From Thalassocella blandensis (GTDB lineage: Bacteria; Pseudomonadota; Gammaproteobacteria; Pseudomonadales; Cellvibrionaceae): a stretch of 64,000 bases of DNA. Positions within the stretch are counted from its first letter, which is position 1; each line of letters opens with the position of its first letter. Below the pieces are notes generated by a model, which worked only from the letters and a program-made list of their open reading frames with translations, was not told the origin of the DNA and did not search any database. The stretch is from assembly GCA_945882995.1 (NCBI GenBank), contig CAMCXE010000001.1:2084-66083 (forward strand), read 5' to 3'. Of the stretch, positions 7,747 to 60,274 are shown piece after piece. The position numbers were made by a program, and so were the translations under genes.

Positions 7747-7760
7747 AGGTGCCTCCTCAA

Positions 7761-21878: not shown

Positions 21879-21885
21879 TCTCGCC

Positions 21886-38132: not shown

Positions 38133-38352
38133 TTGCTATGATGAAAGAGCAAAAAAGTGCAGCGGCTTTTTCCTCGCTGAACCTTTGTAGCATCCAGATC
38201 ATTCAATAACGCAAACCTTCGGGTTTGATGATCGGTCGCAAGACTGCGTTAACCTTACTCAATGAGCATTTCGCTCGCCACCCACTGGGGCAAACACTTG
38301 CCCATTGGGGGTTTGTGTTTCTCCGGTATTTTCTTACTTTTGGAGAAACACT
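38133..38352 (+). promoter_or_regulatory. Type A structured leader, copy 2 (ends in an SD-sequestering hairpin)
   Basis: Same 5' 127 nt as copy 1. The 3' part has the perfect 10-bp stem GTGTTTCTCC (38315-38324) / GGAGAAACAC (38342-38351), which covers the SD 2 nt before the ATG. Confidence 0.7.
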
Positions 38353-39207
38353 ATGAACGCTCAAGCAAACACCACCACTCGCAACGCATCCGTTTCAACC
38401 GCTCGTTCATCTCGCCCTGCGCAAGCCGTGCGAGGTCAATCAGCTAAGCAAGCCGACAGTCACTACTTTAATGCACACTTGGAAGGTATGGGGTATCTCA
38501 ACAATATCCGTGAGATCCAAGGTAAAAGCGGCACGTTTGTGTCGGTGCAATTTTGTATGCTGGAAGGCAAGCCAGACAGTGTGGAGAAAATTTATATCTC
38601 TCTCACGGTACCGGCGGATGATGTAAAAGATTTGCTTACCCAGCATTGGGACGCAATCAATAGCGGTGATGAAGACTCCAAAGTGTATGCCGGATTGCGC
38701 TTGTCGCATTTTCGCGCAGAACCTTTTATGTACGGTGCGAATAGTGCAAAGTCCGGGCAGCTGGGCGTTAACTATTCAGCCCGTGCCATAAAGGTCATGC
38801 ACTTGAAGGTGGGTAGCCAGACAATCGTGTTAAGCTCTCGCGATAGCGAGGCGAAAACCGATTATGGTGTGCCCGCCAAACGAACCGTTGCACCCAAAGC
38901 GGTACCTGCGGCCAGTAATGACACCGGTTTATTTGATAAACCTTTATCGGTGGAATTACGCAAAGATGATCCTAACTTTCAAACGATCGCTGATCGTTTG
39001 CGAGGTGATGGTTATCGCTGGCACAGTGATCGGTTTGCCTGGGTAATGCCTCATGTAACACTTGAGGCCAGCAACCCAAGCTTTACCGAGAAACAGCAGG
39101 CACTCGTGGCGGAAGGATATCGTTCTGATGATGGCTTGGTGTACCACATGACCTTTGGTCGTGGTGCCAGACCACAACAGGCTCGATATTCCGGTAACCG
39201 TCATTAA
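38353..39207 (+). CDS. Hypothetical ICE protein (DUF3577 / STY4534-like, tentative)
   Basis: Start placed at ATG 38353 after the GGAGAA SD. HYFNAHLEGMGYLNNIREIQGKSGTFVSVQFCMLEG resembles my memory of DUF3577 island proteins. Confidence 0.45.
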   Translation: MNAQANTTTRNASVSTARSSRPAQAVRGQSAKQADSHYFNAHLEGMGYLNNIREIQGKSGTFVSVQFCMLEGKPDSVEKIYISLTVPADDVKDLLTQHWDAINSGDEDSKVYAGLRLSHFRAEPFMYGANSAKSGQLGVNYSARAIKVMHLKVGSQTIVLSSRDSEAKTDYGVPAKRTVAPKAVPAASNDTGLFDKPLSVELRKDDPNFQTIADRLRGDGYRWHSDRFAWVMPHVTLEASNPSFTEKQQALVAEGYRSDDGLVYHMTFGRGARPQQARYSGNRH

Positions 39208-40030: not shown

Positions 40031-40348
40031 ATGCGATATGCCCGATTGATCCATGCCGTATTACTTGCCTCAGGCCTGTCCAGTGCCGTCCAGGCTTCGC
40101 CACCCGCCTCGCAAAAATCGCTCAATGACGCTCAAGCCAAGCTCAACGCGGAAGTCTTAGCGCAGCCATTTTCATTTGAGCAAGAGCAAGCCGTGGAAAC
40201 CTACATTGAGGAGCGTTTGCGCTTACGCGAAGAACCGCTGCGCACGGCGCCAGCCGCTTGGCGCAACCACTACGATTGCCATAAGTTGCACAACTACGAC
40301 GACTACCGTGATTGTCGGTATTACCAGCGTTATTACCAAGCGCGTTAA
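40031..40348 (+). CDS. Small secreted protein, unknown function
   Basis: MRYARLIHAVLLASGLSSAVQA signal peptide. The C-terminus is rich in Y/R/C (CHKLHNYDDYRDCRYYQRYYQAR). Confidence 0.5.
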   Translation: MRYARLIHAVLLASGLSSAVQASPPASQKSLNDAQAKLNAEVLAQPFSFEQEQAVETYIEERLRLREEPLRTAPAAWRNHYDCHKLHNYDDYRDCRYYQRYYQAR

Positions 40349-40420
40349 TGTTAATGCCGGCAATCGCCGCCCCGAGTTCCACCGCTGTACCCACAATAAC
40401 AAGCAATACTCACTTACTCG

Positions 40421-41197
40421 ATGAAGGAAATGATTATGAAAAACGCCGTAAAAGCTGTAGCAATTCTGGGTTTTAGTGCGTGGTTGGCCGGTTGCGCTGC
40501 CACACAAACTGCCATCAGCAAGAAAGACTTGGATGTGCAAACCAAAACCAGCACCAGCATTTTTGTGGATGCGGTACCTATGCCTAAGCGCACCATATTT
40601 TTAGATATTCGCAGTGGGGTGCAGGAATTTGACCGCAATGCGTTTAAGCAATTTGTTTCTCAGCAGTTTGCAAGTAATGCCAATGCCTACCGCTTGGTGG
40701 ATGACCCGGAGGCCGCTCAGTTCTCCATGGTGGCTTATGTAGTCAACCTAGAAAAAGCCAGCCCCACCGCTGCGCAGGCGGCTTTAGGTCAGGGTTTTGT
40801 GGGGGGTAACAGCACCACCAATGCTGTGTTGGCGGGCGCTGCATTGGGTAGCATGGGCTCCAATAGCGGCTACAAAGGTGCCATTGGCGGCGGCTTAGCC
40901 TTAGGCGCTGCGGATTTTGTGGCGGGCAATATGGTGAAAGATGTGACCTATTTGCTGGTAGTGGATGTACAAATTAAAGAGCGCGCTGCCAATGGCGCCA
41001 TTGTGCGTAAAGACACGGCGATCAACACTAAGGTGTCCGATGACGGCAAATCCCGCCAAACGGTGTCTGAGGTTTCCAATCAAAAAGAATACCGCACCCG
41101 CATTGTGACCACGGCCAATAAAGTGAACTTGAAGCTGGAGGAGGCTCAACCGCTGATGTTCTCCAAAACCGCTTACGCACTATCGGGATTCTTCTGA
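40421..41197 (+). CDS. traT: TraT surface-exclusion / complement-resistance outer-membrane lipoprotein
   Basis: Lipobox LAGC. Alignable to F TraT over its whole length (AISKKDLDVQTKTS..., VKDVTYLLVVDVQIKER..., YRTRIVTTANKVNLKLEEA versus F NVEDVNYTMITDVQIAER, YQTRVVSNANKVNLKFEEA). Confidence 0.85.
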   Translation: MKEMIMKNAVKAVAILGFSAWLAGCAATQTAISKKDLDVQTKTSTSIFVDAVPMPKRTIFLDIRSGVQEFDRNAFKQFVSQQFASNANAYRLVDDPEAAQFSMVAYVVNLEKASPTAAQAALGQGFVGGNSTTNAVLAGAALGSMGSNSGYKGAIGGGLALGAADFVAGNMVKDVTYLLVVDVQIKERAANGAIVRKDTAINTKVSDDGKSRQTVSEVSNQKEYRTRIVTTANKVNLKLEEAQPLMFSKTAYALSGFF

Positions 41198-46557: not shown

Positions 46558-49500
46558 CTATTCGATGGGTAAATGACTCGGTACGGACACCTCCACACAA
46601 TTGCGCCCCGATTGTTTGGCCGTGTAAAGCGCCACATCCGCCAGCTTTAACATTTTATCAAAGGTGTCATCCGGCTTAATGCAGGCAGACACACCCATGC
46701 TAATGGTGACGCTCAACGGGTTGTCACCCTGCTCAAAGGTGTGTGCCGCTACAGCCACGCGGATTTTCTCGGCAAGGCGCACCGCGCTGTCCAGTGTGGT
46801 ACTGGGGCACATCAACACAAACTCCTCGCCGCCCCAGCGGGCCAAGTGGTCGCCCGACCGAATATTCTGCAAAACCACGTCTACCAAACCCTTAATCACC
46901 CTGTCTCCAGCATCATGGCCACGGTTGTCGTTAATGCGCTTGAAGTGGTCAATATCAAAAATCATTAAGCACACGCCCTTTTTCATTTCGTCGTTGATAA
47001 ACAGACCGGCAATGATTTGATTAAGACCGTGGCGGTTATAAATCCCGGTCATGGCGTCGGTAGCGGATAGGGTTTTGTATTTGTCGGTTTGGTTATGCAG
47101 GTGAACCCAGTAACGGCGCCCAATCTCAGCGGCCAGCAACAACAATCCGTAAAGCCCGTAAGCCCAGCTCGTGCGCCAAAAAGGCGGGGTAATTTCAATG
47201 GCAAGACTGGTTTCGCTGGTCATGCCGGGAGTTGCATGGTTGGCGGCGCGCACCCGGAAGCGGTACTGACCTGGAGCCAGGTTGGTATAGGTGGCGGAGC
47301 CTGCGGGTGTGCCCATGCGCCACTGGGTGTCGAAACCTTCCAGCCTGTAGCTGTAGTCATAGCTTGCTGAAGAGACAAAATTTAGGCCCACATAATCAAT
47401 GGAAAACATTGGGTCGCTCCAAGCTAGTTGAAGTTTTTCGGTATGACCTAAGTCTTGGCTCAAAAGTGATCCGGCACTGCCGGGGATTTGTGGTGTGCTG
47501 CCAAGGCGCAGCTCAGTAAGCACTACGCGGTGTAGGTTGGCGGGACTGTCCATCCCGGCACCCTTGGCGGTGACTTTGACCGGATCAAACTCGGTGACCC
47601 CTTCAGTACTGCCGATCCACAAGTGCTGCTGGCGATCTAGCAGCGCCGCGTTGCGCGTCACGCTAGACCCGGCTAGGCCGTGGCGTTTGCGGTAGGTTTG
47701 AACATGGCGACTAACGGGGTCAATATGGGCCAAGCCGTTGATGGTGCCTAGCCACACGCCGCCCTGAGCGTCTTCGATGATGGTGCTGATGGAATTAGAT
47801 GGCAGCCCATTATGGGTGGTGAGCCTACTGAACTGCTCTTTAGTGGGGTCTAGGATGCTCACCCCATCACTCTTGGTGCCCACCCAAATATTGCCCTTGG
47901 AATCCTCCATAAGCGCCAGTATGTGATCCGCTGCAAGGCTGTTAGGGTCGCTGGCACTATGGGTGTAATGGGTGAACCTGCGCGTGGCGATATTGAATTT
48001 ATCCAACCCCTTGAGCGTGCCCAGCCACAAGTTACCTCGGCTGTCCGGCAGCAAGGCTTTAACAAAATCATACGCCAGGGAATTGGGATTGGAGGGGTTG
48101 TGGCTGAAGTTTTCAAAACTGTCGGTGTCGGGACGGTACAGACCAAAGCCCCCTCGCTCCAAATAACACACCCAAAGGTTGCCGGTTTTATCGCGGGCAA
48201 TTTGTGAAATGTAGGGGCTGGCCACCGCGCCGGGGTTATTGGCGTCTGGGTAGTAATTCTTGAAAGTCGCCGTCTGGCGATTAAACCGATGCAGGCCACC
48301 CGACCAAGTGCCCACCCAAAGATTACCACTGGTGTCTTCGCCCAAACTGGTCACCGCATTAAAGCGTAGGCTGTTCGGGTTTTTGGGGTTGGCGGTGTAG
48401 CGAGTGCTAGCGCCAGTCACAGGGCTGATGGAGACTAATCCCGTTTCGCTGCCCACCCAAATAAGGCCTTGGGAATCCTGAAACACACTGGTGATTTGAT
48501 CGAGTGGCTGAGTATTGTCTATGGCGCCTGCGATCTTGTGCGGAATAAAGGTGGCCTTGTGTTCATCGTACAGGTTGACGCCATCCGGGAAGGTGCCAAC
48601 CCATACGTTGCCATCACGGTCTTCAAAAATATCCCGCACTTGATTTGACCGCAAAGAGCCGGGATCAAGGGCATCATGTCGCACGCGGGTAAATTCATCG
48701 GTGCTAGCATCGTAAACCGCAAGCCCGCCATGGTCGGTGGCCACCCACAGGGTTTGGTGGTATTCCCGAATATCCCGTATGGCATCGCTCCCCAGTGACC
48801 GCTCATTATCGGGGTTAGACCGGTAAATTCTGAAGGTTCGCCGGTCGGCGTTCATGCGGCTCAGCCCGCCCGAATAGGAGCCCACCCAGATTTGCCCAAG
48901 GTGGTCTTCATAGATACGCTCAATATCACCCTCTTGGAGCGATGCGGGATCATTGGCGTCGTGGCGCCACCGCTCAAATTTACCGGTCAGCGGGTCAAAT
49001 ACATTCAAGCCTTTGCTTGTAGTTCCAATCCAGACTTTTTGGTGAGAGTCGATAAACAGCGAGCGCGCATTATCGCCGCTCAAGCTGTTCGGGTTGGCGG
49101 CATCGGCCATGTGCTTGCGAAAGCCGGTGCGGTCGGCACTCAGCACATTGAGGCCTGCGGAGGTGCCGATATACAGTTGGTTCTGGGCGTCTACCGCTAG
49201 GGCCATGATCAGGCTACTGCTTAAATCCTTAGCGCCGGAACCTTCCTGGTACCGGGTAAAATCGTCGGTTTGCGCGTTGTAGCGGTTTAAGCCATTAAAA
49301 GTGCCCAGCCAAAGCACACCGGATTTATCCACGGCAAGTGCGGCTATGTAGTTGGACGATAGGGAGCGAGGGTTGAATGGGTCGTAAAAATAGAATTTGA
49401 AGTGCTGCGAATCGTAGCGCGCCAAGCCGTATTCACCGGCAAACCACATAAACCCGTGGCGGTCTTGAATGATGTCTTTAATGGCGCCGATGGATTGTTG

Positions 49501-49617
49501 TTCAGCGCCATCCGCTGTTAACAGGCGCTGAAAACGTAAATTCAGCTGCGCGTTCGGTGCGGCCGCTACAACAGCTCCGCTCCACAATACAATTAGTACC
49601 ACCACCCAACGAAACAC
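46558..49617 (-). CDS. Sensor diguanylate cyclase: propeller repeats plus Y_Y_Y domain, TM, GGDEF domain
   Basis: Same repeat architecture as the kinase. YSYRLEGFDTQW...YRFRV, a TM segment, then a GGDEF domain with RWGGEEF and DIDHFKRINDNRGHDAGD. Confidence 0.85.
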   Translation of the reverse strand: MFRWVVVLIVLWSGAVVAAAPNAQLNLRFQRLLTADGAEQQSIGAIKDIIQDRHGFMWFAGEYGLARYDSQHFKFYFYDPFNPRSLSSNYIAALAVDKSGVLWLGTFNGLNRYNAQTDDFTRYQEGSGAKDLSSSLIMALAVDAQNQLYIGTSAGLNVLSADRTGFRKHMADAANPNSLSGDNARSLFIDSHQKVWIGTTSKGLNVFDPLTGKFERWRHDANDPASLQEGDIERIYEDHLGQIWVGSYSGGLSRMNADRRTFRIYRSNPDNERSLGSDAIRDIREYHQTLWVATDHGGLAVYDASTDEFTRVRHDALDPGSLRSNQVRDIFEDRDGNVWVGTFPDGVNLYDEHKATFIPHKIAGAIDNTQPLDQITSVFQDSQGLIWVGSETGLVSISPVTGASTRYTANPKNPNSLRFNAVTSLGEDTSGNLWVGTWSGGLHRFNRQTATFKNYYPDANNPGAVASPYISQIARDKTGNLWVCYLERGGFGLYRPDTDSFENFSHNPSNPNSLAYDFVKALLPDSRGNLWLGTLKGLDKFNIATRRFTHYTHSASDPNSLAADHILALMEDSKGNIWVGTKSDGVSILDPTKEQFSRLTTHNGLPSNSISTIIEDAQGGVWLGTINGLAHIDPVSRHVQTYRKRHGLAGSSVTRNAALLDRQQHLWIGSTEGVTEFDPVKVTAKGAGMDSPANLHRVVLTELRLGSTPQIPGSAGSLLSQDLGHTEKLQLAWSDPMFSIDYVGLNFVSSASYDYSYRLEGFDTQWRMGTPAGSATYTNLAPGQYRFRVRAANHATPGMTSETSLAIEITPPFWRTSWAYGLYGLLLLAAEIGRRYWVHLHNQTDKYKTLSATDAMTGIYNRHGLNQIIAGLFINDEMKKGVCLMIFDIDHFKRINDNRGHDAGDRVIKGLVDVVLQNIRSGDHLARWGGEEFVLMCPSTTLDSAVRLAEKIRVAVAAHTFEQGDNPLSVTISMGVSACIKPDDTFDKMLKLADVALYTAKQSGRNCVEVSVPSHLPIE

Positions 49618-49756
49618 GCATTACCCCGCTTAAACCAATAGTTGGCATTTCTTTTAGTTAAGCAGGTGGCATGGCGAGTGCTGGCTAACCGATCCAATCA
49701 AATTGTATTGGGTTTGCGCGAATATAGATTGCGGTGATCTAAGCGCCAGAATCGAA

Positions 49757-49945
49757 TTGCGCAACAGTCCATTCAGTGCAATGATTAAAGCGCAAAACGT
49801 CTCAACGAACGTACCGTTGACCCTTAAGAGCTGCGCACTGAATCTGTAATCGCAGTATGGCTTTACGGCCTGATTCTATTTTTTAAAACCCGCGCGGGAG
49901 AAATCCCGACCGGGGTGCTCTCGCATTTTTTTTGGAGAGTACCCT
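49757..49945 (+). promoter_or_regulatory. Type B promoter plus structured leader, copy 1 (upstream of radC)
   Basis: TTGCGC, 17 nt, TGcAATGAT. Hairpin TCAACG(7 nt)CGTTGA followed by CCCTT. CGGGA-GAAA-UCCCG hairpin. SD-sequestering stem 49914-49922 / 49935-49943. Confidence 0.7.
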
Positions 49946-50401
49946 ATGCAATACGCACTGAAATCTGACGATGAAGTGATTCAAACCGCCCTCAGTATTA
50001 TGGAGGCGCGGGCACACAAAGGTGGCGCCGGATTATCCAGCCCTAAATTGGCCAGCAATTTATTTATGTTGCGCTTAGGTAATTTAGAGCATGAGGTTTT
50101 TTGTGTGGCGTTCCTGGATAACCAAAACCGCTTAATCGCGGCAGAGGATATGTTCAGGGGCACCATTGACGGCGCCAGTGTCTACCCTCGGGAAGTGGTT
50201 AAACGCGCCCTGCAGCTTAATGCGGCGGCGGTGATGTTTGCCCACAATCACCCCAGCGGACTGACAACGCCTAGTACTGCGGATAAGCAAATAACCAAGC
50301 GATTAAATGAGGCGCTCGCGCTGATTGATATTCGGGTGCTGGATCACTTTGTGGTGTCAGCAGTGGAATACACCTCCTTTGCTGAGCAGGGGTGGTTATG
50401 A
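49946..50401 (+). CDS. radC: RadC-like JAB/MPN domain protein
   Basis: [27 protein letters not shown]-like motif and overall RadC length (151 aa). Confidence 0.85.
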
Positions 50402-50592
50402 GCTTGATTAACGCCGTGCCGCAACAACAAATACTCTGGCGCTACAGCCTTGTTACGGGGAATTGGCACCCGGTTAGAATCTGCGATCCTAAAAATGCCG
50501 CCGCATGGCTGCAAATATTTCAGGATGATGAGCCAGGTGTTGATTTCAGACTCGAAAAAACGCGGCCCGGGAGAAAACCCCTAGGTCGGTGA
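50398..50592 (+). CDS. Small hypothetical protein translationally coupled to radC
   Basis: Its ATG overlaps the radC stop (ATGA). 64 aa. Confidence 0.4.
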
Positions 50593-50631
50593 TTTGCGAT
50601 TTTAGAATTTTACCTATGGTGAAAGCACGAA

Positions 50632-50792
50632 AATAAAAAGCTCCCTCAAAATGCTGAAACGGGAGCGCCCAATCTTCGGATTGGGTGGCATTAAACCTAA
50701 CAGGCGAAAGCCTTCACTCAACCCACTGGGGCAATTTTCCCAGTGGGGAAAGTTGTGTCTCCAGTGGGTTAATTTAATTTGGAGATACAACC
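50632..50792 (+). promoter_or_regulatory. Type C structured leader / intercistronic element, copy 1
   Basis: Nearly identical to 51904-52064. Hairpins GCUCCC...GGGAGC, CCCAAUC-UUCG-GAUUGGG, AGGC-GAAA-GCCU and CCCACUGGGG / CCCAGUGGGG / CCAGUGGG (alternative pairings), plus the SD stem 50755-50762 / 50781-50788. Confidence 0.7.
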
Positions 50793-51905
50793 ATGAATGT
50801 TACTACCAACTTCAACAAAATTACTGGATGTCACGTCTACAACGCGAAGCTTTATTTTTCAGCCATAGTGGCTTTTGAGCATTCCGCTTTGTTTAGGGTT
50901 GATGGCTCTATCGGGACACCAGAAACGGTGTCTGCAATGGTGGATTTTCTCCATGCTCTCGACACTGCACTAGGAGTCACCAATTCTGGATTTGTCGCAG
51001 TGTATGTGGTTCGGGGTATAGAGGCTTCCACCGACGTTTTTTACAGCCTGGAAAAGCAGAGACCCCGGGAAATCGGTGCTGGATTTGTAAGCCAGCTAGA
51101 GGATAGTGATCTTACTTGCGGAGTGTTTGTTAGCCCTGCAAGCGAATCCATTGGGTCTACTGATTACGATGAGCTTGTAATCTTCAACCCTGCCGGTCCT
51201 GTAACCATCAAACTCACCGATCAGGCGAGTGTGGTGGCCAAACTTGCAGAGCTGAGTGATTACGTCATTTTATCGACCACAGGCATGGCAAAAGATTTTG
51301 ACCGTGATGATGTGTTTGACGTGGTTGGGTATTTTGCGGCGAAAACTGGGCAACCGGTTGCAGTCGAAAGGCCCGCTGTTGTTGCTGAGGCTCCCTCACC
51401 AAAGGATATTGTCATCGAGTCAATAATCCCTAATGGAGAGCGTGTTTTTGCAATGGCGGTTTTTCCCAACGGTTATGCTCATGAGTCAGAGTTTGCCAGT
51501 GAGAGCGAGGCTCGCGGTTATGTGGCAACACTGAACACCATGGGTCAAGCGTCCAGAACTTGTGCCAATGATGCAGTTTCGGCGATGGATACAGCCAAGG
51601 TTGCGGTAAATCAGGCTCAGCCTAGGTTTATCCCGTGCTCCAATTCCGAGGTCGTAATTGATTGCGGAGGGCAGTGGTCTTTGGAGGTGTTGAAGTCTGT
51701 TTGTGCCAATGGTGCAATTTCCGAGGAGGATGCAGCCAAGCTCGCGGCAAAGTGTGCGCAAGCGGCAAAGCTGTTAACCGAGGTGGCTCAGGCAGTGACT
51801 TATGAAAATCTCAGTGAAATTTTAGGGTGGACTTCATCCTGGGTGATCGAGATGATCGAAGGTTTAACGGCCAGTGAGTTTACGAAGTTTCAGGCAGTGA
51901 AATAA
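50793..51905 (+). CDS. Hypothetical protein
   Basis: 370 aa with a GGAG SD 8 nt upstream. No recognisable motif. Confidence 0.55.
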   Translation: MNVTTNFNKITGCHVYNAKLYFSAIVAFEHSALFRVDGSIGTPETVSAMVDFLHALDTALGVTNSGFVAVYVVRGIEASTDVFYSLEKQRPREIGAGFVSQLEDSDLTCGVFVSPASESIGSTDYDELVIFNPAGPVTIKLTDQASVVAKLAELSDYVILSTTGMAKDFDRDDVFDVVGYFAAKTGQPVAVERPAVVAEAPSPKDIVIESIIPNGERVFAMAVFPNGYAHESEFASESEARGYVATLNTMGQASRTCANDAVSAMDTAKVAVNQAQPRFIPCSNSEVVIDCGGQWSLEVLKSVCANGAISEEDAAKLAAKCAQAAKLLTEVAQAVTYENLSEILGWTSSWVIEMIEGLTASEFTKFQAVK

Positions 51906-52064
51906 TAAAAAGCTCCCTCTAAATGCTGAAACGGGAGCGCCCAATCTTCGGATTGGGCGGCATTAAACCTAACAGGCGAAAGCCTTGACTCAACCCACTG
52001 GGGCAATTTTCCCAGTGGGGAAAGTTGTGTCTCCAGTGGGTTATTTTATTTTGGAGATATGACT
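51904..52064 (+). promoter_or_regulatory. Type C structured leader / intercistronic element, copy 2
   Basis: Starts at the stop codon of the upstream gene. Only a few mismatches relative to copy 1. Confidence 0.7.
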
Positions 52065-52550
52065 ATGGGTGTAGGTGTTTATTGGCAAGAAAATGCGTTT
52101 ACCGTGTTTGTTGATGATGAGGAGTTGTATGCTGAATACAGCATCGAAAAACAGCAGCACGAAAACATTGAGCATGACGACGACTACCAATCGTTGCACG
52201 AGGATTTTGTGCAAGAAGTCTTGGAGCTGTTGCCGGAATCGTATGAGGTATTAACCGATACTTGGGAGGGTGGTTACAGCTTCGGAGATGTATCGCGTCA
52301 AATACTGGCTGAAAACGGCTTCTATCGCGTTTCACTGGTAGATTGGCATGGTATGCAGGCGATCAATGTAGAGTTGCGTCAAGCACACTACAGCGATTCT
52401 TGGGAGTTTAATCCTTTGGCTGTGCATCATCATGGCCGAGCGGCCACGAAGATTTTTGATGCGTTAGCTGAGCGGTTTGCGTTGCGCGGCAGGACAAGTG
52501 GCTGGACTACCGGCTGTTATGTGAAATCAACCGAAAAACTTGCCGCCTAG
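52065..52550 (+). CDS. Hypothetical acidic protein
   Basis: Start placed at the second ATG (52065) to keep the 8-nt SD spacing seen in copy 1. The track start is 52059. Confidence 0.5.
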   Translation: MGVGVYWQENAFTVFVDDEELYAEYSIEKQQHENIEHDDDYQSLHEDFVQEVLELLPESYEVLTDTWEGGYSFGDVSRQILAENGFYRVSLVDWHGMQAINVELRQAHYSDSWEFNPLAVHHHGRAATKIFDALAERFALRGRTSGWTTGCYVKSTEKLAA

Positions 52551-52652
52551 CGGTACCTGAAGTGTTTTAGCGCAAGCTAAAGCACTTTTTTTGTGCCTGC
52601 CGTTTGGTGGCGGACCCATTGGCCACCAGCAGAGGCCACGCTCAATCAGCCC

Positions 52653-52895
52653 TTGAAAATTTCGTATTTCGGTGCAATCATTAAGGCGTATAACGTCTCA
52701 GCGAACGCACCGCTGAACCTTTGTTACAACGTCTTGGCGAACGTACCGCCGAACCTTTATAGCTGCGCACCAGGTTTGCAATCGCAGCAAGACGCAAGTC
52801 TGACCTGACACTACACCACCCATCGGGGAGTCTAATCCTCCCCTCCGGGACGGTGATGCTCCCCAGTTTAATTCCTAAACTTCGGAGCAGGCACC
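52653..52895 (+). promoter_or_regulatory. Type B promoter plus structured leader, copy 3 (hairpin module duplicated)
   Basis: TTGAAA, 17 nt, TGcAATCAT. Two tandem hairpin modules, TCAGCG(7)CGCTGA-ACCTTT and TTGGCG(7)CGCCGA-ACCTTT. SD stem 52857-52862 / 52884-52889. Confidence 0.7.
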
Positions 52896-53102
52896 ATGCA
52901 AGCATCTTTCAAAGCAACTGAATTTCACACTGTTGAAGCCACATTCGGCGGTCTTGTCAGCACTAAGCTGACAGACTCTCGGGTACCTGGCGAGACGTTT
53001 GAAAAACAACTCTCGTTGGAGTCTTACAATAACCTTGTGAGATTCATTCAAGAGAACGATCATCGCTATGCCATTACTATGGCAAAGCGTATGTTTCACT
53101 AG
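52896..53102 (+). CDS. Small hypothetical protein, paralog 1
   Basis: 68 aa. C-terminal SLESYNNLVRFIQENDHRYAITMAKRMF parallels the neighbouring gene. Confidence 0.45.
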   Translation: MQASFKATEFHTVEATFGGLVSTKLTDSRVPGETFEKQLSLESYNNLVRFIQENDHRYAITMAKRMFH

Positions 53103-53129
53103 AGCGTTACCCCTAGTTGGCTTCAAGCG

Positions 53130-53184
53130 ATTAGGGAGCCTCCTAAAAACACTTATTTCAGGTGGTTTTAGGAGGTTCCCTAAT
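53130..53184 (+). other. Long near-perfect 19-bp stem hairpin between the two small paralogs
   Basis: ATTAGGGAGCCTCCTAAAA (53130-53148) pairs with TTTTAGGAGGTTCCCTAAT (53166-53184), 18 of 19 positions, with a 17-nt loop. Confidence 0.8.
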
Positions 53185-53508: not shown

Positions 53509-54264
53509 TCAAGCGCCGGATTGGCTGGCGGTGTTTTGATTGAGCTGCTCCCATGCCGCCACATCCGCCTCGGTGGCCGAGCCAGAGGCCAGTGCGCGTT
53601 CACGCAAATACTCCTTAATTTGCTCAAGATTCCAGTCCGCAGGCAATCCGTGAGTGCGCAGGTAATCATCCCTCACCTCTTGCCGCGTTAAAAACGCTTC
53701 GCGCTCCATAGCCGTGGAGTAAGAAAACCCGGAAGGGTCGCCAAAAAATATTTCATAGCGACTAATAACGCCTTGGCGTGTGCCGGGGTATTTCGCATGA
53801 AAGGCGTTTACTGCCGATTCAATATGGTCAATGTCATTGGTGTCGGTGACAAAGCCCCATTCAATATAATCATTCAATACCTGGCGGCGGTAGCGAGCGG
53901 AGTTGTAAAACAGTACGCGCAGGCGACGCTCTTTGGTGTCTAGGCGGGATTCATCGCCAAAAAACCACTCGCTAATGGTGAGCGGCTTTTTGGTGGTTTC
54001 ACTGTTTTGCGTGGCCAATTCGTCCAGTTTATCGAATAGGGCTTGGCCGGTTAATCCTATAAACGGGGTTTGATCAAAAGGCTTGGTTTCCAGCCGGGAT
54101 TTTTCGCTGGTTTGGTAGGCTTCAAATTCGGGAATGTCGTCACGCATGGCCATACCCTTGTAGATCATAAAAAAACTGGCCGCTGCGCCTTCATCAAAAC
54201 CGCGCTCCTGCATTAGGGTGCGACTCACAATGACGTGTTCGTTATGGGATAAGGGTCTGTACAC
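53509..54264 (-). CDS. Hypothetical protein, third gene of the vapBC operon
   Basis: 251 aa. GTG start with a GGAGG SD. Only 15 nt downstream of the vapC stop. No recognisable motif. Confidence 0.55.
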   Translation of the reverse strand: MYRPLSHNEHVIVSRTLMQERGFDEGAAASFFMIYKGMAMRDDIPEFEAYQTSEKSRLETKPFDQTPFIGLTGQALFDKLDELATQNSETTKKPLTISEWFFGDESRLDTKERRLRVLFYNSARYRRQVLNDYIEWGFVTDTNDIDHIESAVNAFHAKYPGTRQGVISRYEIFFGDPSGFSYSTAMEREAFLTRQEVRDDYLRTHGLPADWNLEQIKEYLRERALASGSATEADVAAWEQLNQNTASQSGA

Positions 54265-54279
54265 ACTGGCCTCCGGGAT

Positions 54280-54696
54280 TTACAGCCAAGGATTAAGAAG
54301 TTTTACACCCGTCAATTCAAAATCGAGTGTATTGCGAGTCACTACTGTCATGCTATGAATAATTCCCGTTGCGGCAATAAACGCATCCCGCTCGGAGCGA
54401 GGGTCGGGAATGTGCAGCCCAGCGCAGCACTGCGCCACGGCCACGTCTATGGGTAAAATGCGCCCTGCAAAGGCGGGTATCACTTGCTCGTCGAGCCAGC
54501 GTCGTAGCATATCGCTTTGCACCGGGTCTTTCTGTGCGACGCGACGAATACCCAGTTCAAGTTCCATGATGGTTATCACTGATAAATGCAGTGAATCCGT
54601 GGCCACCGCCTGCGCCCAAGTCACCACACCCTTATGGGCGCGCCCTGCCCGCCCTTTGCGCAGCTCGGACACCACATGGGTATCGAGTAAATACAT
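54280..54696 (-). CDS. vapC: Type II toxin VapC (PIN domain ribonuclease)
   Basis: MYLLDTHVVSELRK...ITIMELELG...AFIAATGIIHSMTVVTRNTLDF, a typical PIN/VapC-FitB pattern with conserved acidic residues. Confidence 0.85.
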   Translation of the reverse strand: MYLLDTHVVSELRKGRAGRAHKGVVTWAQAVATDSLHLSVITIMELELGIRRVAQKDPVQSDMLRRWLDEQVIPAFAGRILPIDVAVAQCCAGLHIPDPRSERDAFIAATGIIHSMTVVTRNTLDFELTGVKLLNPWL

Positions 54697-55053: not shown

Positions 55054-55246
55054 TTGCGATTTCGGGGTTTGGGTGCAATGATTAAAGGGCAAAACGTCTC
55101 AGCGAACGTACCGCTGAACCTTAGAGTTGCGCATCGAATCTGCAATCGCAGCATGGCTTAATCGCCTGATTCTATTTTTTTCTAACCCGCGTGGGAGTCA
55201 TCCCGCATGGGGTGCTCTTCGCATTTTATTTTTGGAGAGCATCACC
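55054..55246 (+). promoter_or_regulatory. Type B promoter plus structured leader, copy 2
   Basis: TTGCGA, 17 nt, TGcAATGAT. Hairpin TCAGCG(7)CGCTGA-ACCTTAG. SD stem 55211-55218 / 55236-55243. Alignable to copy 1 all the way to the ATG. Confidence 0.7.
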
Positions 55247-55792
55247 ATGATTTCAGTACCCGGCACCATCAAAATCCGCAGTGTAGAAGGCCGTTTTGGC
55301 TCCTTCAATGTGGCCACACTCGATTGCTCCATCGGTTCGTTTACGGTCAAAGACGCCTCTATTGAGGAGTTTGACCAGGGCGTTTATACCGGTGATTTTG
55401 TGATTGAAAAAATTAAACCACAAAGTTACATCTCAAACGGCCGCATGGTGGTTGAGGTTCGAGCCATACTCAGCGCCATTATGCTGAGTCGGGATTCGGT
55501 ACATCAGCCCTGTGATGAATTTGAGTCGCTAGAGCAAGACCCGATGGAAGCCGAAGCGGGTGTTGATGAAGGCCCAGAGCCTGAATTGACCCCGGCACCG
55601 GATGAGGTGGAGGTTGAAGTGGTTGATGATGAGCTGGACGAAGCTGCCCGTTTATTCGGAATACTTTGGCCGCTCGGTAACGTCATTAAACTCGACCCAA
55701 CCATTAACCGTGCGTTGTTCCGTCAGCAAAAAGATTACCTGAAAAATGCAGGTTTTCGCTTTGTTGCCGCCGATCAACACTGGTTACGGTAA
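55247..55792 (+). CDS. Hypothetical ICE protein (DUF3275-like, tentative) with acidic linker
   Basis: Start at ATG 55247 (MISVPGTIKIRSVEGRFGSFNVATL...). OB-like N-terminal region and an acidic stretch EAEAGVDEGPEPELTPAPDEVEVEVVDDELDE. Confidence 0.45.
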   Translation: MISVPGTIKIRSVEGRFGSFNVATLDCSIGSFTVKDASIEEFDQGVYTGDFVIEKIKPQSYISNGRMVVEVRAILSAIMLSRDSVHQPCDEFESLEQDPMEAEAGVDEGPEPELTPAPDEVEVEVVDDELDEAARLFGILWPLGNVIKLDPTINRALFRQQKDYLKNAGFRFVAADQHWLR

Positions 55793-57731: not shown

Positions 57732-57910
57732 GGAGAGTAAAAATCGTGACTTTCACGAACCCGTAAGCGAAGTCAGGGCGCAAGCCTGGGGTTCATTGTA
57801 ATTTGTAAACACTCACTGTTTTCATTTGAAAACAACACCTTGACCCTGCGGGCACAAACTCCCGTAGGGGCTTGTGTTGGCGGGGTTTTCTTATTTTTGA
57901 GGAAACCTTT

Positions 57911-60274
57911 ATGAGCGCAGTAACCACTTTAAACACCACTGAAATTGCTGATGTAAACAATGTTGATACCAGCGTTTCGCTGTCTGCCGGGGAGTTGATC
58001 GAAGCGGCAGACACTATGAATTTGCGGGATTTTATCAGTGAATTTGGCGCCGATTTATTAGCGGCAGTCGAACGCGATAATCCACCCGTGTACACCGCTG
58101 GTTGCCCAGTCTTGTCGCGCAGTCATGTACTGCAAAACTTGCTGCGTAAACCGTTTGAAGCCCAAGCAGAAGCCGTGCAAGCCTTGGCTGCACTGTTATT
58201 CGACAAGGGTGAAAAAGCGGCCATTTTGAATGCGGAAATGGGCACCGGCAAAACCATGATGGCAATTTCGCTAGCGGCAGTAGCGCAGCGTGAAGGCTTC
58301 CGAAATACCTTAATCATTAGTCCACCGCACTTGGTGTACAAATGGCGACGGGAAATTCAGGAGACTATACGCGGTGCAAAAGTTTGGGTGCTAAACGGCC
58401 CAGATACCCTGGCTAAATTGCTGAAGTTGCGTGAAGCCCTGCGGGTTGCACCGTCTGATATGCCCGAGTTCTTCATCATCGGGCGGGTCAGAATGCGGCT
58501 TGGGTATCACTGGCGTCATGCGTTTACGCTGCGTCGCTTTCGTCGTTTGGTCTGTGAGGATCAAACCGGCGGTGGTGAAGGTGTACGGCGGATTGCACTG
58601 GCAACAGAGCATCCCGCCTGCGGACACTGCGGTGAATGGGTAAAGAATGAGGATGGCGATTTGCAAAGCGCACTCGACATTCAAATTCAAACCAAACAAC
58701 TGCGCTGCAAAAAATGCAATTCAGCCTTGTGGACGCTGATGCGGCCCAAAGCGGCACCGGTGGGACAAGGTGAGGTGGTGAAAAAGGCCTTGTGCCAATT
58801 GCCCACCATTGGCCCCAAAACAGCGGATCGTTTGATCGGCATGTTCGGAGCCAAAATGCTTGAAGGTATGCTAGCCGACAACATTTATGAGTTTGTGAAC
58901 CTCATGGATGAAGACGGCGAGCTGGTGTTTTCGGATCGTCAAGCCACTCGCATGGAGCGGGCGCTTGCCACTACCGAGTTCAGTTTTGGCCAAGGCGGCT
59001 ATCAGGCTACAGAATTCCTCAAGCGTTATATGCCGAAGGGTTTTGTGGATCTACTGGTAGTGGACGAAGGGCACGAATATAAGAACGAAGGCAGTGCGCA
59101 AGGGCAAGCCATGGGTGTATTGGCGGCGCTCTCCAAAAAGGTATTGCTGTTAACGGGTACTTTAATGGGGGGTTATGCCAGTGACCTGTTCTTTTTGTTG
59201 TGGCGCTCTATGCCCCACCGCATGATAGAACTGGGTTTTAAATGCAGTGGTCGCGGCTCTATGGCGGCAGCTTCCATGGCGTTTATGCGGGAGCATGGCG
59301 TACTGAAAGACATTTACAAAACCAAGGAAGGCGGTAATCACCGCACCGCCCGTGGCAATCGCACGGTGGTGAGCACGGTAAAAGGCCCAGGCTTTGGCCC
59401 ATTAGGCATAGCCCAATGCGTTTTGCCGTTCACGGTGTTTTTGAAACTTAAAGACATTGGGCAAAAAGTATTACCGCCTTACCAGGAGTATTACGTTGAG
59501 ATCGACATGGAAAGCGAACAGCGTTATCAATATTTAAAAATGGAGAAAAAATTGACCCAAGAACTCAAGGAGGCTTTGCGTAAAGGGGATAAGAGCTTAA
59601 TGGGTGTTGTACTCAACACACTGTTAGCTTGGCCGGACACCTGTTTTATGCCAGAGGTTGTTAAGCACCCCAGAACCCGTGAAGTATTGGCGATAGCTCC
59701 AGCGTTATTTAAAGATGACGGTATGGAAACGCCAAAAGAGACTTGGTTAAAGCAATATTGCTTGGATCAGCAACAAGATGGACGCCGCGTACTGGTTTAT
59801 ACCAGCTACACCGGCAAGCGTGATACCTGTAATCGCTTAAAGCACATGCTAAGCGAAGCAGGGTTAAAAGTCGCCGTGCTGCGCTCCACCGTCGCCACAG
59901 AAAAGCGTGAAGACTGGGTAGCGGATCAAGTGGATAAAGGCATTGAGGTAATTATCTGCAACCCCGAACTGGTGAAAACCGGGCTGGATTTGCTGGAATT
60001 TCCTTCAATCGTCTTTATGCAAACCGGCTACAACGTGTACACCTTGATGCAAGCGGCCAGACGCTCATGGCGTATTGGCCAAACCAACGATGTTGACGTG
60101 GTATTTTTAGGCTACGCCCAATCCGCACAAAGTCGCTGCCTTTCACTAATGGCAGAGAAAATAGCGGTAAGCCAGTCCACCTCGGGGGACATTCCCGACT
60201 CAGGACTCGACTCGCTGAATCAGCGTGGCGATAGTGTTGAGGTGGCTATGGCAAGGGATTTGTTAGCTGCGTAA
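57911..60274 (+). CDS. SNF2-family helicase with inserted zinc ribbon
   Basis: Motif I NAEMGTGKTMMA, motif II VVDEGHEYKN, motif III LLTGTLMGG, motif VI QAARRSWRIGQ. Insertion CGHCGEWV...CKKCNSALW between motifs I and II. Start at ATG 57911. Confidence 0.8.
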   Translation: MSAVTTLNTTEIADVNNVDTSVSLSAGELIEAADTMNLRDFISEFGADLLAAVERDNPPVYTAGCPVLSRSHVLQNLLRKPFEAQAEAVQALAALLFDKGEKAAILNAEMGTGKTMMAISLAAVAQREGFRNTLIISPPHLVYKWRREIQETIRGAKVWVLNGPDTLAKLLKLREALRVAPSDMPEFFIIGRVRMRLGYHWRHAFTLRRFRRLVCEDQTGGGEGVRRIALATEHPACGHCGEWVKNEDGDLQSALDIQIQTKQLRCKKCNSALWTLMRPKAAPVGQGEVVKKALCQLPTIGPKTADRLIGMFGAKMLEGMLADNIYEFVNLMDEDGELVFSDRQATRMERALATTEFSFGQGGYQATEFLKRYMPKGFVDLLVVDEGHEYKNEGSAQGQAMGVLAALSKKVLLLTGTLMGGYASDLFFLLWRSMPHRMIELGFKCSGRGSMAAASMAFMREHGVLKDIYKTKEGGNHRTARGNRTVVSTVKGPGFGPLGIAQCVLPFTVFLKLKDIGQKVLPPYQEYYVEIDMESEQRYQYLKMEKKLTQELKEALRKGDKSLMGVVLNTLLAWPDTCFMPEVVKHPRTREVLAIAPALFKDDGMETPKETWLKQYCLDQQQDGRRVLVYTSYTGKRDTCNRLKHMLSEAGLKVAVLRSTVATEKREDWVADQVDKGIEVIICNPELVKTGLDLLEFPSIVFMQTGYNVYTLMQAARRSWRIGQTNDVDVVFLGYAQSAQSRCLSLMAEKIAVSQSTSGDIPDSGLDSLNQRGDSVEVAMARDLLAA

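Follow-up and report, generated by a model that had tools for sequence, protein, structure and literature searches.

Paired near-identical units in an integrative conjugative element carry a covarying leader module with two predicted competing folds

RESULTS

Two near-identical units lie in the variable slot of the radC operon

The window analyzed here, a 64-kb stretch of DNA, represents a PFGI-1/pKLC102-type integrative conjugative element (ICE). We found two repeated units, named Type C, within its radC operon (Table 1). They occupy the variable slot ahead of DUF3275, in which relatives have anti-restriction genes. The far border of the slot is formed by the DUF3275 leader element. In relatives, the stretch from radC to DUF3275 holds ArdB and an uncharacterised gene of about 400 aa, and DUF3275 adjoins a defence/anti-defence hotspot in PAPI-1 islands (PMC12629846).

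Unit 2 had been described in the initial annotation as beginning at the stop codon of the upstream gene, and its start indeed lies within the TAA (51903-51905) of the 370-aa ORF. The units are closed by the ATGs at 50793 (unit 1) and 52065 (unit 2). The ATG equivalent to that of unit 1 is the one at 52065; the start given by the ORF tool, 52059, does not correspond to it.

Both downstream genes are orphans. Searches with orf370 returned itself only, among 5.8e9 clusters as well as, by exhaustive phmmer, among 1.84e9 representatives, and an exact-sequence look-up returned nothing. We also compared orf370 with the ~400-aa gene that relatives have in this slot and saw no relation. The AF2 model of orf161 (pLDDT 38) was too poor for a structure search. 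As the downstream orphan proteins have no homologues in the collections searched, related ICE loci were gathered via radC.

The Type C repeat as a whole (50632-50800 and 51904-52072) shows 94% identity. Within the 161 nt of the units themselves, we counted eight differences (95% identical), at 50648, 50686, 50715, 50772, 50777, 50788, 50789, and 50792, which agrees with the few differences reported previously. Three of them are in loops, one in a linker, one immediately beyond the last stem, and three in stems, and these three stem changes (G-U to G-C, G-C to G-U, and U-A to U-G) keep the pairing on the + strand only. In the 64-kb window, two unit-defining strings matched the two units only, with chance expectations of 0.06 and 0.00. 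The best identity of the units to any other member of the family described below is about 62%. Compared with this value, their mutual identity of 95% makes a recent duplication or gene conversion, as was suggested earlier, a plausible origin of the pair.

A promoter-like box, CGCTGAACCTT (exact or with 1-2 mismatches), occurs at six + strand sites upstream of leader modules and is absent from both units. No sigma-70 match is common to the two units, the sole sigma-70-like match being at the edge of unit 2, and no pair of -35/-10 hexamers was found within the units or their stems. Furthermore, the units are flanked by the radC leader upstream and by a strong terminator downstream. These observations agree with the initial annotation that the unit is an intercistronic element rather than a promoter. 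From the sequence, we infer that both units are co-transcribed from the radC leader.

Table 1. Positions of the Type C units, their hairpins, and the surrounding features in the 64-kb window
Feature	Position	Strand	Remarks
STY4534-family gene, S1/H2 module	38275..38355	+	Further copy at 37546-37626; E = 5e-8 and 5e-6
Promoter-like box CGCTGAACCTT	37446, 38175, 49815, 52711, 52747, 55112	+	Absent from both units
radC promoter-like and leader element	49771..49948	+	Last 66 nt (49883-49948) form an S1/H2 module
Type C unit 1	50632..50792	+	Entire leader from the 64-aa ORF (end 50592) to the 370-aa orphan gene
Hairpin 1	50640..50666 (unit 2: 51912-51938)	+	GCUCCC-15 nt loop-GGGAGC
Hairpin 2	50667..50686 (unit 2: 51939-51958)	+	8-bp stem, GCCCAAUC-UUCG-GAUUGGGU, abuts hairpin 1
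Hairpin 3	50702..50713 (unit 2: 51974-51985)	+	AGGC-GAAA-GCCU
Hairpin 4, family stem S1	50722..50747 (unit 2: 51994-52019)	+	Arm A CCCACUGGGG, loop L CAAUUU, arm B UCCCAGUGGG
Switch segment	50749..50770 (unit 2: 52021-52042)	+	L', anti-SD, and box C
Hairpin 5, family stem H2	50752..50791 (unit 2: 52024-52063)	+	13 bp, U/A-rich loop
370-aa orphan gene (orf370)	50793..51905	+	Downstream of unit 1; no Pfam family
Type C unit 2	51904..52064	+	From the stop codon of the 370-aa gene to the ATG (52065) of the 161-aa orphan gene
161-aa orphan gene (orf161)	52065..52550	+	Downstream of unit 2; homologues not found in protein collections
Strong intrinsic terminator	52559..52588	+	Closes the operon; 13-bp stem and T-run; terminator-type Rfam near-hit
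Small gene at 52896, divergent S1/H2 module	52813..52898	+	E = 0.28
DUF3275 promoter-like and leader element	55068..55249	+	Paralogous to that of radC; S1/H2 module at 55180-55249
SNF2 helicase, S1/H2 module	57838..57913	+	Alternative fold: 17/19-bp hairpin, then UUUUCUUAUUUUU

Each unit folds into five hairpins, the last of which masks the start region

The minimum free energy of the RNA is -68.4 kcal/mol for unit 1 and -71.4 kcal/mol for unit 2, compared with shuffle means of -44 and -47 kcal/mol (z = -6.37 and -5.88; 0 of 200 shuffles folded equally well). All five stems listed in the initial annotation were found in both units. Its statement that the last stem buries the Shine-Dalgarno (SD) sequence also holds, the GGAG at 50781-50784 being enclosed in H2, but this stem measures 13 bp instead of the 8 bp given there. 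The probability that the SD is unpaired at 37 C is 0.013 in unit 1 and 0.004 in unit 2, and it stays at 0.04 or below throughout 20 to 50 C. Since the SD helix remains closed over this range, we dropped the idea of an RNA thermometer.

Hairpins 1 and 2 are very stable, abut each other, and have no U-tail; the closing pair of hairpin 2 is G-U in unit 1 and G-C in unit 2. The AAUGCU in the loop of hairpin 1 is complementary to GGCAUU (50687-50692), possibly forming a pseudoknot (-6.2 kcal/mol, shuffle p = 0.023, two near-identical copies only). Neither hairpin was seen in the other members of the S1/H2 family described below. With two near-identical copies, covariation is not assessable here, and the 5' 60 nt (hairpins 1 and 2 and the possible pseudoknot) are thus an upstream domain whose structure is predicted by energy alone. 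At the place of hairpin 3, a small GGC...GCC hairpin is present in several leaders of the family, such as GAGGCGAAAGCCU in the related locus L054 and AGGCUUAGCCUU in L060.

Two other candidates were set aside. A leader peptide starting from the ATG in the hairpin 1 loop would comprise 75 codons in unit 1 and 21 in unit 2, with no SD. As for CsrA control, relatives have a homologue, none was seen among the ORFs at 39200-40430, and the S1 of Type C has no GGGA top.

The 3' module belongs to a widespread leader family

We defined the S1/H2 module as an S1 hairpin of the form CCC-N3-4-GGG(A)...(U)CCC-N3-4-GGG with, 3' of it, a second hairpin (H2) in which the SD-to-AUG region is paired; the whole ends at a start codon and lies on the sense strand. 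The 3' ~80 nt of each Type C unit has this form. A model built from the two units only (R1) matched related leaders at E = 5e-10 to 1e-2, and a regular-expression search placed S1-type hairpins ahead of 32 + strand starts. With model R2, we obtained about 40 copies from the 64-kb window, eight related metagenomic ICE loci, and Pseudomonas and Shewanella plasmids; every copy lies on the + (sense) strand and has a start codon at its end. The weaker R2 matches on the - strand are mirror images of the palindromic stem. The units themselves score 77.7 and 79.7 bits with R2, which was trained partly on them. Overall, the architecture of S1 plus H2 is kept at about 60% sequence identity before dozens of genes in related ICEs, and the module forms a widespread leader family outside Rfam.

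Known motifs and close copies were not found in the units

Rfam at gathering thresholds gave nothing in the window; in E-value mode it gave terminator-like noise and one near-hit to the ssNA-helicase motif. The S1 stem before the L054 helicase scored 25.3 bits against RF03070 (threshold 41.5 bits) on the opposite strand, and this match is not in the Type C units. The radC RNA motif (RF01754, gathering threshold 40 bits) had no match in the units, in the window (at gathering, and at E <= 10 over 36000-60000), or in seven related loci (E <= 10). This negative result is meaningful, because the same model scores 75-97 bits at four places in P. aeruginosa pY89. STAXI (RF01728) had no match anywhere searched.

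The unit had no blastn match among plasmids or E. coli genomes. Exact-pattern scans with stem sequences yielded nothing but unrelated hairpins in viral contigs, and nothing but chance hairpins in 185,579 species genomes (19-mer) and in JGI metagenomes (20 bases). As the stem sequences covary (see below), such pattern scans are able to find near-identical copies only.

The switch segment can pair in two mutually exclusive ways

The switch segment consists of three parts. L' (AAAGUUG) can bind either loop L or the spacer ahead of the AUG; for the anti-SD (CUCC), the possible partners are the SD and the GGGG of arm A; and box C (AGUGGGUU), which repeats the end of arm B, pairs with AACCCACU. In this way, AACCCACUGGGG pairs with CUCCAGUGGGUU over 12 bp, including the anti-SD CUCC, and the S1 loop CAAUUUU pairs with the AAAGUUG directly 3' of it. 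Combined, these pairings give an extended hairpin of about 19 bp in the Type C units. The mutually exclusive pairings proposed initially are real, and the competition is larger than was described. The pairing of the S1 loop with L' could not be treated as a classical H-type pseudoknot, as there is no linker to span the 10-bp stem, and was treated as an alternative fold.

We modeled the two arrangements as State I and State II. In State I, arm A would pair with arm B as S1, and L' and the anti-SD would pair with the SD-to-AUG region as H2. In State II, the partner of L' would be the S1 loop; the anti-SD would bind the G-rich top of arm A, and box C the base of that arm, leaving arm B looped out of a single long hairpin and the ribosome-binding site (RBS) free. 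In the full leader, State I is favored over State II by about 10 kcal/mol. When the RNA is cut after box C, S1 and the long hairpin differ little in stability (mean ddG -0.9 +/- 3.3, n = 19); in the nascent RNA of Type C, the long hairpin (12 bp plus 7 bp) is ahead by 8.3 kcal/mol, at -26.8 versus -18.5 kcal/mol for S1.

The pairing of arm A with box C (A:C) reaches past the base of S1, by AA/UU in Type C and by GC/GC at L054 9927, and box C is therefore more than a copy of arm B. Helicase-type leaders have 17-18 of 19-20 bp paired in the long hairpin, and RNAfold selects the long-hairpin fold outright for L054 9927-10003. About a third of the family members are without a clear box C, so the alternative fold is not universal.

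The alternative fold also has the form of an intrinsic terminator, that is, a hairpin followed by a U-rich tail. The 9 nt after box C contain 6.6 U on average in the family, and a U-run comes directly after a GC-rich stem base in 19 of the 30 members (e.g., CGGGCUUUUUUU, CUGGGGUUUUUCUUUUUUU, and CGGGGUUUUCUUUUUU). The Type C tail has 6 U in 9 nt and is U/A-mixed, interrupted by A (UUAAUUUAAUUU).

All four helices covary, and the sense strand folds better

In the alignment of S1 plus H2 (30 sequences, many of them orthologues from closely related ICEs and hence not independent events), 91.6% of the cells are paired versus 79.1% in shuffles, and 14 of 21 pairs change on both sides, counts that are inflated because the R2 alignment was fitted to the structure. 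The covariation score was 0.412, compared with 0.200 after shuffling (none of 500 shuffles reached the observed score) and 0.07-0.10 when the partners were slid.

We further performed permutation tests in which the partner of each member was compared with those of other members, each giving p = 5e-5. At variable stem positions of S1, 69 of 84 pairs were canonical versus 39 expected. The energies with own and foreign partners were -15.8 and -10.5 kcal/mol for H2, -7.35 and -5.07 kcal/mol for L:L', and -7.7 and -5.8 kcal/mol for A:C. These results indicate that all four helices (S1, H2, L:L', and A:C) covary, those of the ground state and those of the alternative fold alike.

Of 34 leaders, 31 fold better as the + strand (mean -6.4 kcal/mol, Wilcoxon p = 3e-6), and G-U pairs make up 129 of 886 pairs on the + strand versus 31 of 774 on the - strand. 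This use of G-U wobbles says that S1/H2 is a sense-strand RNA, which argues against a single-stranded-DNA promoter. From composition alone, a G+U-rich sense strand is expected to have some folding advantage over its complement.

The initial annotation regarded the units as a functional regulatory RNA in which alternative pairings lie next to an SD trap, a view that the conservation and covariation of S1 and H2 in related ICEs support at the sequence level. It had named an Rfam search and a homolog collection as ways to check this; the former gave no match and the latter gave covariation. Conservation is thus present outside this element, the lack of which it had named, together with neutral reporter assays, as the case against itself.

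DISCUSSION

Proposed mode of action

Building on the anatomy, conservation, four-helix covariation, and sense-strand bias observed above, we consider it probable that each Type C unit is a cis-acting, sense-strand mRNA leader within a polycistronic transcript, and that its 3' module gates the next gene via two folds. The transcript would run in the order radC, 64-aa ORF, unit 1, orf370, unit 2, orf161, and terminator. In State I, the RBS would almost never be free, leaving the downstream cistron silent by default. Gating would then depend on the balance or timing between State I and State II. Before the SD is synthesized, the long hairpin in the nascent RNA would be at least as stable as S1, and with its U-rich tail, which makes it resemble an intrinsic terminator, it might terminate transcription or else give ribosomes a brief opportunity to load. 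After synthesis of the SD region, the RNA would settle into the masked State I. We infer that the module acts on translation or termination and responds to a trigger: as State I forms first and is the thermodynamic ground state, a module with neither a trigger nor a kinetic argument would simply be "off".

A bolder version, which we put forward tentatively and hold to be rather doubtful, is that S1/H2 serves as an undescribed, self-contained RNA timer across the ICE family. The nascent long hairpin with an open start site (or aborted transcription) would be followed by relaxation to the masked fold, giving one short pulse of translation per transcript for establishment or anti-defence genes, unless a factor of the ICE or host keeps the RNA in the open state. 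Recruitment of new orphan anti-defence genes would occur by placing them behind a copy of the leader, and the two units here would be two instances.

Alternative explanations

A considerably less likely possibility, compatible with the proposed gating leader, is a transcription attenuator, with the long hairpin and its U-rich tail as terminator and S1, lying within its loop, as antiterminator. The GC-rich stem base with a U-run in 19 of 30 members, an A:C pairing longer than the S1 base, the nearly complete hairpins of helicase-type leaders, and the fold chosen by RNAfold at L054 9927-10003 all fit this reading, and known intrinsic-terminator attenuators likewise have two exclusive folds, one of them a GC-based hairpin with a U-rich tail. 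However, the A-interrupted Type C tail (UUAAUUUAAUUU) implies a weak terminator, and, since S1 is the first to form during synthesis, strand displacement would have to be fast for termination to occur. No call was made at the unit sites by the terminator scan, whose limits the loops exceed. Most importantly, the strongly covarying, AUG-containing H2 has no role in a pure attenuator. The units also differ from known attenuators in that the loop of the terminator-like hairpin contains the competing arm B, a further helix covers the start site, and no sensor is evident (leader peptide, T-box, or ligand-pocket-like junction).

Another reading has a parallel in the early mRNA of phage T7, with its intercistronic RNase III sites, namely that the hairpins, chiefly hairpins 1-3 with their UUCG and GAAA loops, are candidate RNase III/RNase E sites or 3'-end protectors, and that the polycistronic RNA would be cut into parts of different lifetimes. 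That unit 2 begins at a stop codon, that the abutting hairpins 1 and 2 are very stable without a U-tail, and that the long alternative hairpin (about 19-20 bp) is near the size of an RNase III substrate would suit such a role. We nevertheless judge it improbable: hairpins 1 and 2, unlike S1/H2, are not seen in other family members, and the conserved SD-AUG pairing suggests control of initiation over decay.

Repeats acting at the DNA level are very improbable. The near-palindromic CCCASTGGG boxes might be operators for a DNA-binding protein, or the unit might be a mobile or recombination repeat (MITE/REP or integron attC-like), given three boxes, CCCACTGGG, CCCAGTGGG, and CCAGTGGG, spaced 17 and 22 bp apart, and repeated palindromes yield "alternative pairings" automatically. 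In addition, near-identical units before consecutive orphan genes recall the attC-type repeats of cassette arrays (cf. the discussion of DUF1874 in PMC5737381). Against this, the box sequences vary across the family with the pairing kept, which is covariation and not a conserved site, and the G-U wobbles are strand-specific. The 64 kb contain two copies only, the searches of genomes, metagenomes, plasmids, and E. coli turned up no others, and there is neither a GTTRRRY core site nor a single long imperfect hairpin of the attC type, but five separate hairpins.

Some structured elements of mobile DNA share the setting of the units. The ssNA-helicase motif (RF03070) is found near helicase, ssb, topoisomerase, or anti-restriction genes and is suspected to act as single-stranded DNA. 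The STAXI motif is likewise structured and located near such genes, and its repeats have UUCG loops, which its authors used as an argument for RNA. Frpo/ssi single-stranded-DNA promoters lie before early or anti-defence genes and are often repeated ahead of successive genes, like the units (PMC11541004). An Frpo/ssi-like promoter or priming signal, formed on the transferred strand upon ICE entry into the recipient, would suit the surrounding radC, ArdB (in relatives), methylase, and helicase genes, typical early/anti-defence genes in one orientation upstream of which Frpo elements occur (PMC11541004), the folding of the units as DNA (z = -5.2 on the + strand and -4.4 on the - strand), and the sub-threshold ssNA-helicase match of an S1 before a helicase. 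We regard it as the most remote of these readings, since such a promoter must fold on the template (-) strand, with -35 and -10 hexamers and an UP element rebuilt in its stem, and the family is optimized for the coding (+) strand, the stems hold no -35/-10 pair (the lone sigma-70-like match falls on the border of unit 2), the pairing of SD and AUG by the 3' helix has no meaning in DNA, and stems of 10-20 bp are unlike the long Frpo hairpin.

Comparison with known leaders

For the preferred reading as gating mRNA leaders, the closest parallels are SD-sequestering leaders with delayed or alternative folding, such as those of the phage MS2 maturation gene, hok mRNA, and IncI/IncB repZ with its loop-to-RBS pseudoknot. 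In these leaders and in the units, the RBS is paired in the stable fold and an upstream loop is complementary to the masking strand; expression is set by the RNA fold or its lifetime in the former, as is predicted for the latter. The units have no sequence relation to them and differ in having no evident leader peptide or antisense RNA, in a masking-strand decoy that is a built-in mimic of SD plus spacer, and in an alternative fold that is followed by a U-run.

The ICE family, including PAPI-1 and pKLC102 of P. aeruginosa, spreads virulence, resistance, and defence genes, and since 2010 these elements have had in the radC motif a candidate regulator that is still unexplained. If the S1/H2 module proved neutral, the finding would reduce to an ordinary pair of duplicated structured leaders. 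As a covarying, two-state module that masks the start region and lies beside the radC motif, it may offer a concrete target for mutation. It may also help to mark, independently of sequence, orphan genes that probably belong to an establishment or anti-defence program, such as the 370-aa and 161-aa genes.

The radC RNA motif (RF01754; PMC2864571) is found in leaders of radC, anti-restriction, methyltransferase, and integrase genes in proteobacterial ICE-type islands, a setting to which the region and the ICE type of the units would fit. The 5' half of the unit may share the layout of its core: a large-loop hairpin of 6 bp is abutted by a UUCG hairpin, after which comes a segment complementary to the large loop. 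The units differ in that they are without its first stem and its conserved GAUC...GAUC pseudoknot sequence, and in lying between genes rather than behind a promoter, with orphans as both downstream genes. The S1/H2 module falls outside the Rfam radC model, and in pY89, where RF01754 has four matches, three of them are followed by the module at a distance of 7-26 nt. The 5' 60 nt of the unit occupies the place that the radC RNA motif holds in promoter-proximal leaders of related elements.

Position of the units in the ICE

The window is an ICE of the PFGI-1/ICEclc/pKLC102 type. It carries genes for TraD (TIGR03754), TraC (PFL_4706 family), ICE_PFGI_1 ParB, PFL_4669, STY4528, STY4534 and PilL2, and also for a topoisomerase, TraT, RadC, DUF3275, a DUF6094 methyltransferase and an SNF2 helicase. 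A CGCTGAACCTT box recurs upstream of several gene blocks in the window. It was found in neither unit of the Type C element, the structured leaders before orf370 (unit 1) and orf161 (unit 2), and the units have no sigma-70-like site in common. We therefore read the units, located between radC and a strong terminator, as internal to the radC operon, which agrees with the initial annotation of intercistronic elements rather than promoters.

Between radC and DUF3275, contigs of related ICEs have a slot that is empty (L035) or holds the anti-restriction gene ArdB and an unknown gene of ~400 aa. L034, the closest relative, matches 49001-50607 at 91% identity, and the similarity ends ~25 nt 5' of unit 1. 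In PAPI-1 islands, DUF3275 borders a defence/anti-defence hotspot (PMC12629846).

Positions of features in the window and in related loci
Feature	Position	Strand	Remark
radC	49946-50401		followed by a 64-aa ORF, then the units
Unit 1	50632-50792		ATG at 50793
Unit 2	51904-52064		ATG at 52065
orf370	50793-51905		orphan, 370 aa
orf161	52065-52550		orphan, 161 aa
Strong terminator	52559-52588		3' of both units
CGCTGAACCTT box, exact	37446, 38175, 52711, 55112
CGCTGAACCTT box, variants	49815, 52747
R2 matches	37546, 38275, 49887, 50716, 51988, 52813, 55180, 57838	+
R2 match, weak	56940	+
Repeat pair	37422-37532, 38151-38252		89-98% identical, each with an exact CGCTGAACCTT box
S1/H2 modules 3' of repeat pair	37546-37626, 38275-38355		before genes (37624; STY4534-family gene)
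Large-loop hairpin stretches	49771-49884, 52667-52790, 55068-55180
Perfect-hairpin leader	53128-53180		5' of small gene at 53208
PIN-domain gene and 251-aa gene	53509-54696	-	PIN-domain gene 54280-54696
57-nt tandem duplication	24631-24744		within ParA-family ORF 24520-25464
36-nt-period repeats	23187-23748		within 810-aa ORF 21820-24252
L054, leader pair	7600-7830, 8140-8370		before consecutive genes
L054, S1 stem	15003-15029		5' of SNF2 helicase; compare window 57844-57870
L060, radC to next gene	3206-3306
pY89 (L063), S1/H2 modules	3596-8529		P. aeruginosa
pSBAL11702 (L062), S1/H2 modules	9592-13784		Shewanella

Sequence and fold of the two units

A repeat search aligned 50632-50800 with 51904-52072 at 94% identity, and 8 of the 161 positions of the units as first delimited differ. 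As annotated, unit 2 starts at the upstream stop codon, inside the TAA of the 370-aa ORF. The suggested recent duplication is plausible from the sequences, the units being 95% identical to each other against at most ~62% to any other copy.

RNAfold gave all five hairpins named in the initial annotation in both units, at −68.4 kcal/mol (z = −6.4) for unit 1 and −71.4 kcal/mol (z = −5.9) for unit 2; 0/200 shuffles matched the fold energy of either. The competing pairings were also recovered, to a greater extent than first described. AACCCACUGGGG is complementary to CUCCAGUGGGUU over 12 bp, including the anti-SD CUCC, and the CAAUUUU loop of hairpin 4 can pair with AAAGUUG (L') just 3' of this hairpin; together these pairings form a single extended hairpin of ~19 bp. 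None of the 8 differences between the units breaks a pair, and the three in stems (G-U to G-C, G-C to G-U, U-A to U-G) keep pairing on the + strand only.

The 5' 60 nt consist of a hairpin (6 bp, 15-nt loop), an adjoining UUCG hairpin and then GGCAUU, which is complementary to AAUGCU in the loop of hairpin 1 (−6.2 kcal/mol, shuffle p = 0.023, from two near-identical copies only). No counterpart of hairpins 1 and 2 was found in other members of the family described below.

The 3' part of the unit is kept as a family

No near-identical copy of the unit was found in the collections scanned (plasmids, E. coli genomes, viral contigs, species genomes and JGI metagenomes), and the closest outside sequences are only ~60% identical. 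The 3' ~80 nt, comprising hairpin 4 (S1) and the hairpin that pairs the SD-to-AUG region (H2), are conserved outside this element, as a family in related ICEs. In the related locus L054, each gene from radC through DUF3275 is preceded by such an arrangement: a hairpin CCC-xxx-GGGA...UCCC-xxx-GGG (S1), followed by U-rich sequence and by the SD and ATG. A regular expression located 32 S1-type sites, every one upstream of a + strand gene, and R1, a covariance model trained on the two units only, recovered these sites at E = 5e-10 to 1e-2. R2, the model of the S1/H2 part, gave ~40 matches on the + strand, each ending at an ATG; none was convincing in the transfer-gene half of the window. L060 also has the small hairpin and UCUCC-ACGGG-U-run arrangement of the unit.

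Leaders are duplicated before consecutive genes elsewhere too. A further repeat pair in the window lies upstream of two S1/H2 modules. The L054 pair is ~94% identical (216/230 positions), with identity extending into the first codons, and DUF3577 is the second of the two genes. Duplicated leaders are thus a recurrent feature of the family. The modules on pY89 and pSBAL11702 are in named, cultivated hosts and offer tractable experimental systems.

The pairings of both folds covary and are maintained

On 30 R2 matches, in an alignment fitted to the model and so favouring the result, 91.6% of S1 and H2 cells were paired versus 79.1% in shuffles, 14/21 pairs had changes on both sides, and the covariation score was 0.412 versus 0.200 in shuffles (0/500 reached this value) and 0.07-0.10 when partners were slid. 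As an alignment-independent check, partner strands within each of 30 non-redundant leaders were compared with partner strands taken from other members. At variable positions of S1, 69/84 own pairs were canonical against 39 expected from other members. Own partners were likewise better in H2 (−15.8 versus −10.5 kcal/mol), loop L with L' (−7.35 versus −5.07) and the base of S1 arm A with box C, a repeat of the end of arm B (−7.7 versus −5.8), with p = 5e-5 in all four cases. Thus, the helices of both the ground state and the alternative fold are maintained. Since its pairing with arm A reaches past the base of S1 (AA/UU in Type C), box C is more than a degenerate copy of arm B.

The sense strand gave the better fold in 31/34 leaders (mean 6.4 kcal/mol, p = 3e-6), with G-U pairs at 129/886 versus 31/774 on the complement. 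For the unit itself, the + strand has a small advantage in folding, whether as RNA or as DNA. H2 pairs the SD and often also the AUG, which only makes sense in mRNA. We conclude that the Type C element is real, is an RNA-level element and is kept as a family.

Relation to known RNA families

Searches of the units, the whole window and seven related loci against Rfam 15 returned no match, and we found no description of the S1/H2 module in the literature searched. The element is an SD-masking leader, a known kind, in an uncatalogued form. Tests of the unit for membership of the radC motif (by Rfam score), ssNA-helicase, STAXI, Frpo, attC/REP and thermometers were negative. A Frpo-type single-stranded promoter of these genes would need to fold on the template strand, with −35/−10 hexamers in the stem (PMC11541004); neither is the case for the units.

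The radC motif (RF01754) shares the gene associations of the S1/H2 module, and its core, as given in the published alignment and in Rfam, resembles hairpins 1-2 plus GGCAUU in layout, a likeness drawn from two near-identical copies only. On pY89, RF01754 has 4 matches (75-97 bits), and R2 matches start 7-26 nt downstream of three of them; 2 further R2 matches are intergenic with no radC motif, and 4/5 R2 matches end at an annotated start codon. By these positions, the S1/H2 module is distinct from the radC motif and adjacent to it, and the Rfam model does not cover it. The module is located in an important ICE family and adjoins an unexplained motif.

Three other stretches, presumably the other repeat types of the initial annotation, contain an inverted repeat CAGCG-N7-CGCTG, AACCTT and a large-loop hairpin. 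Further 3' are a small hairpin (GGC...GCC) and a segment that can pair with the large loop, and this last pairing shows covariation (GAAUC/GAUUC in two of the copies and CAGGUU/GACCUG in the other). Their topology is that of the radC motif core, yet RF01754 has no match there; the 5' part may be a promoter/operator or RNA. The L054 S1 stem before the SNF2 helicase scored 25.3 bits with ssNA-helicase on the opposite strand (threshold 41.5); that Rfam motif may partially describe a helicase-type family member.

A putative two-state mechanism

In the full leader, S1 plus H2 (State I) is more stable than the long alternative hairpin (State II) by ~10 kcal/mol, and the SD is predicted to be unpaired with a probability of 0.013 (unit 1) or 0.004 (unit 2) at 37 °C. 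This value is still at most 0.04 at 50 °C, which rules out an RNA thermometer. In State II, the strand masking the start site would pair backwards onto a built-in mimic of that site, formed by the G-rich top of arm A and loop L, while box C would close the hairpin base and arm B would be looped out.

When the RNA ends just past box C and so lacks the SD, the family as a whole shows little difference in stability between S1 and the long hairpin (mean ddG −0.9 ± 3.3, n = 19), and in Type C the long hairpin is favoured by 8.3 kcal/mol. The 9 nt after box C contain 6.6 U on average; box C is absent in about one third of members. Because the long hairpin rivals S1 at this stage and is followed by U-rich sequence, the growing transcript can transiently adopt a terminator-like hairpin. 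If polymerase continued past it, the start site would emerge unmasked, and later relaxation to State I would close it. We favour a sense-strand leader that gates its downstream cistron through two folds, probably with translation as the primary output and attenuation as the main alternative or a companion. The regulatory RNA with an SD trap proposed at the outset gains support from the masked SD and the maintained helices of both folds, its effect being predicted.

Orphan genes and other repeats

Homologue searches with orf370 and orf161 returned only the query itself among 5.8e9 clusters, as did an exhaustive search with orf370 (1.84e9 representatives). Both occupy the slot that holds ArdB in relatives, so their products may serve novel functions in anti-defence or establishment. 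A different leader type, with a perfect hairpin of ~19 bp (AUUAGGGAGCCUCCUAAAA...UUUUAGGAGGUUCCCUAAU), precedes the small gene at 53208, which looks paralogous to that at 52896, the motif ENDH-x-[YF]-A occurring in both. The PIN-domain and 251-aa genes share this variable slot.

Elsewhere in the window, the tandem duplication (79% identity) repeats a 19-aa stretch resembling the DxDPQ segment of ParA, and the 36-nt-period repeats encode a 12-aa repeat with a high content of E, K, A and P.
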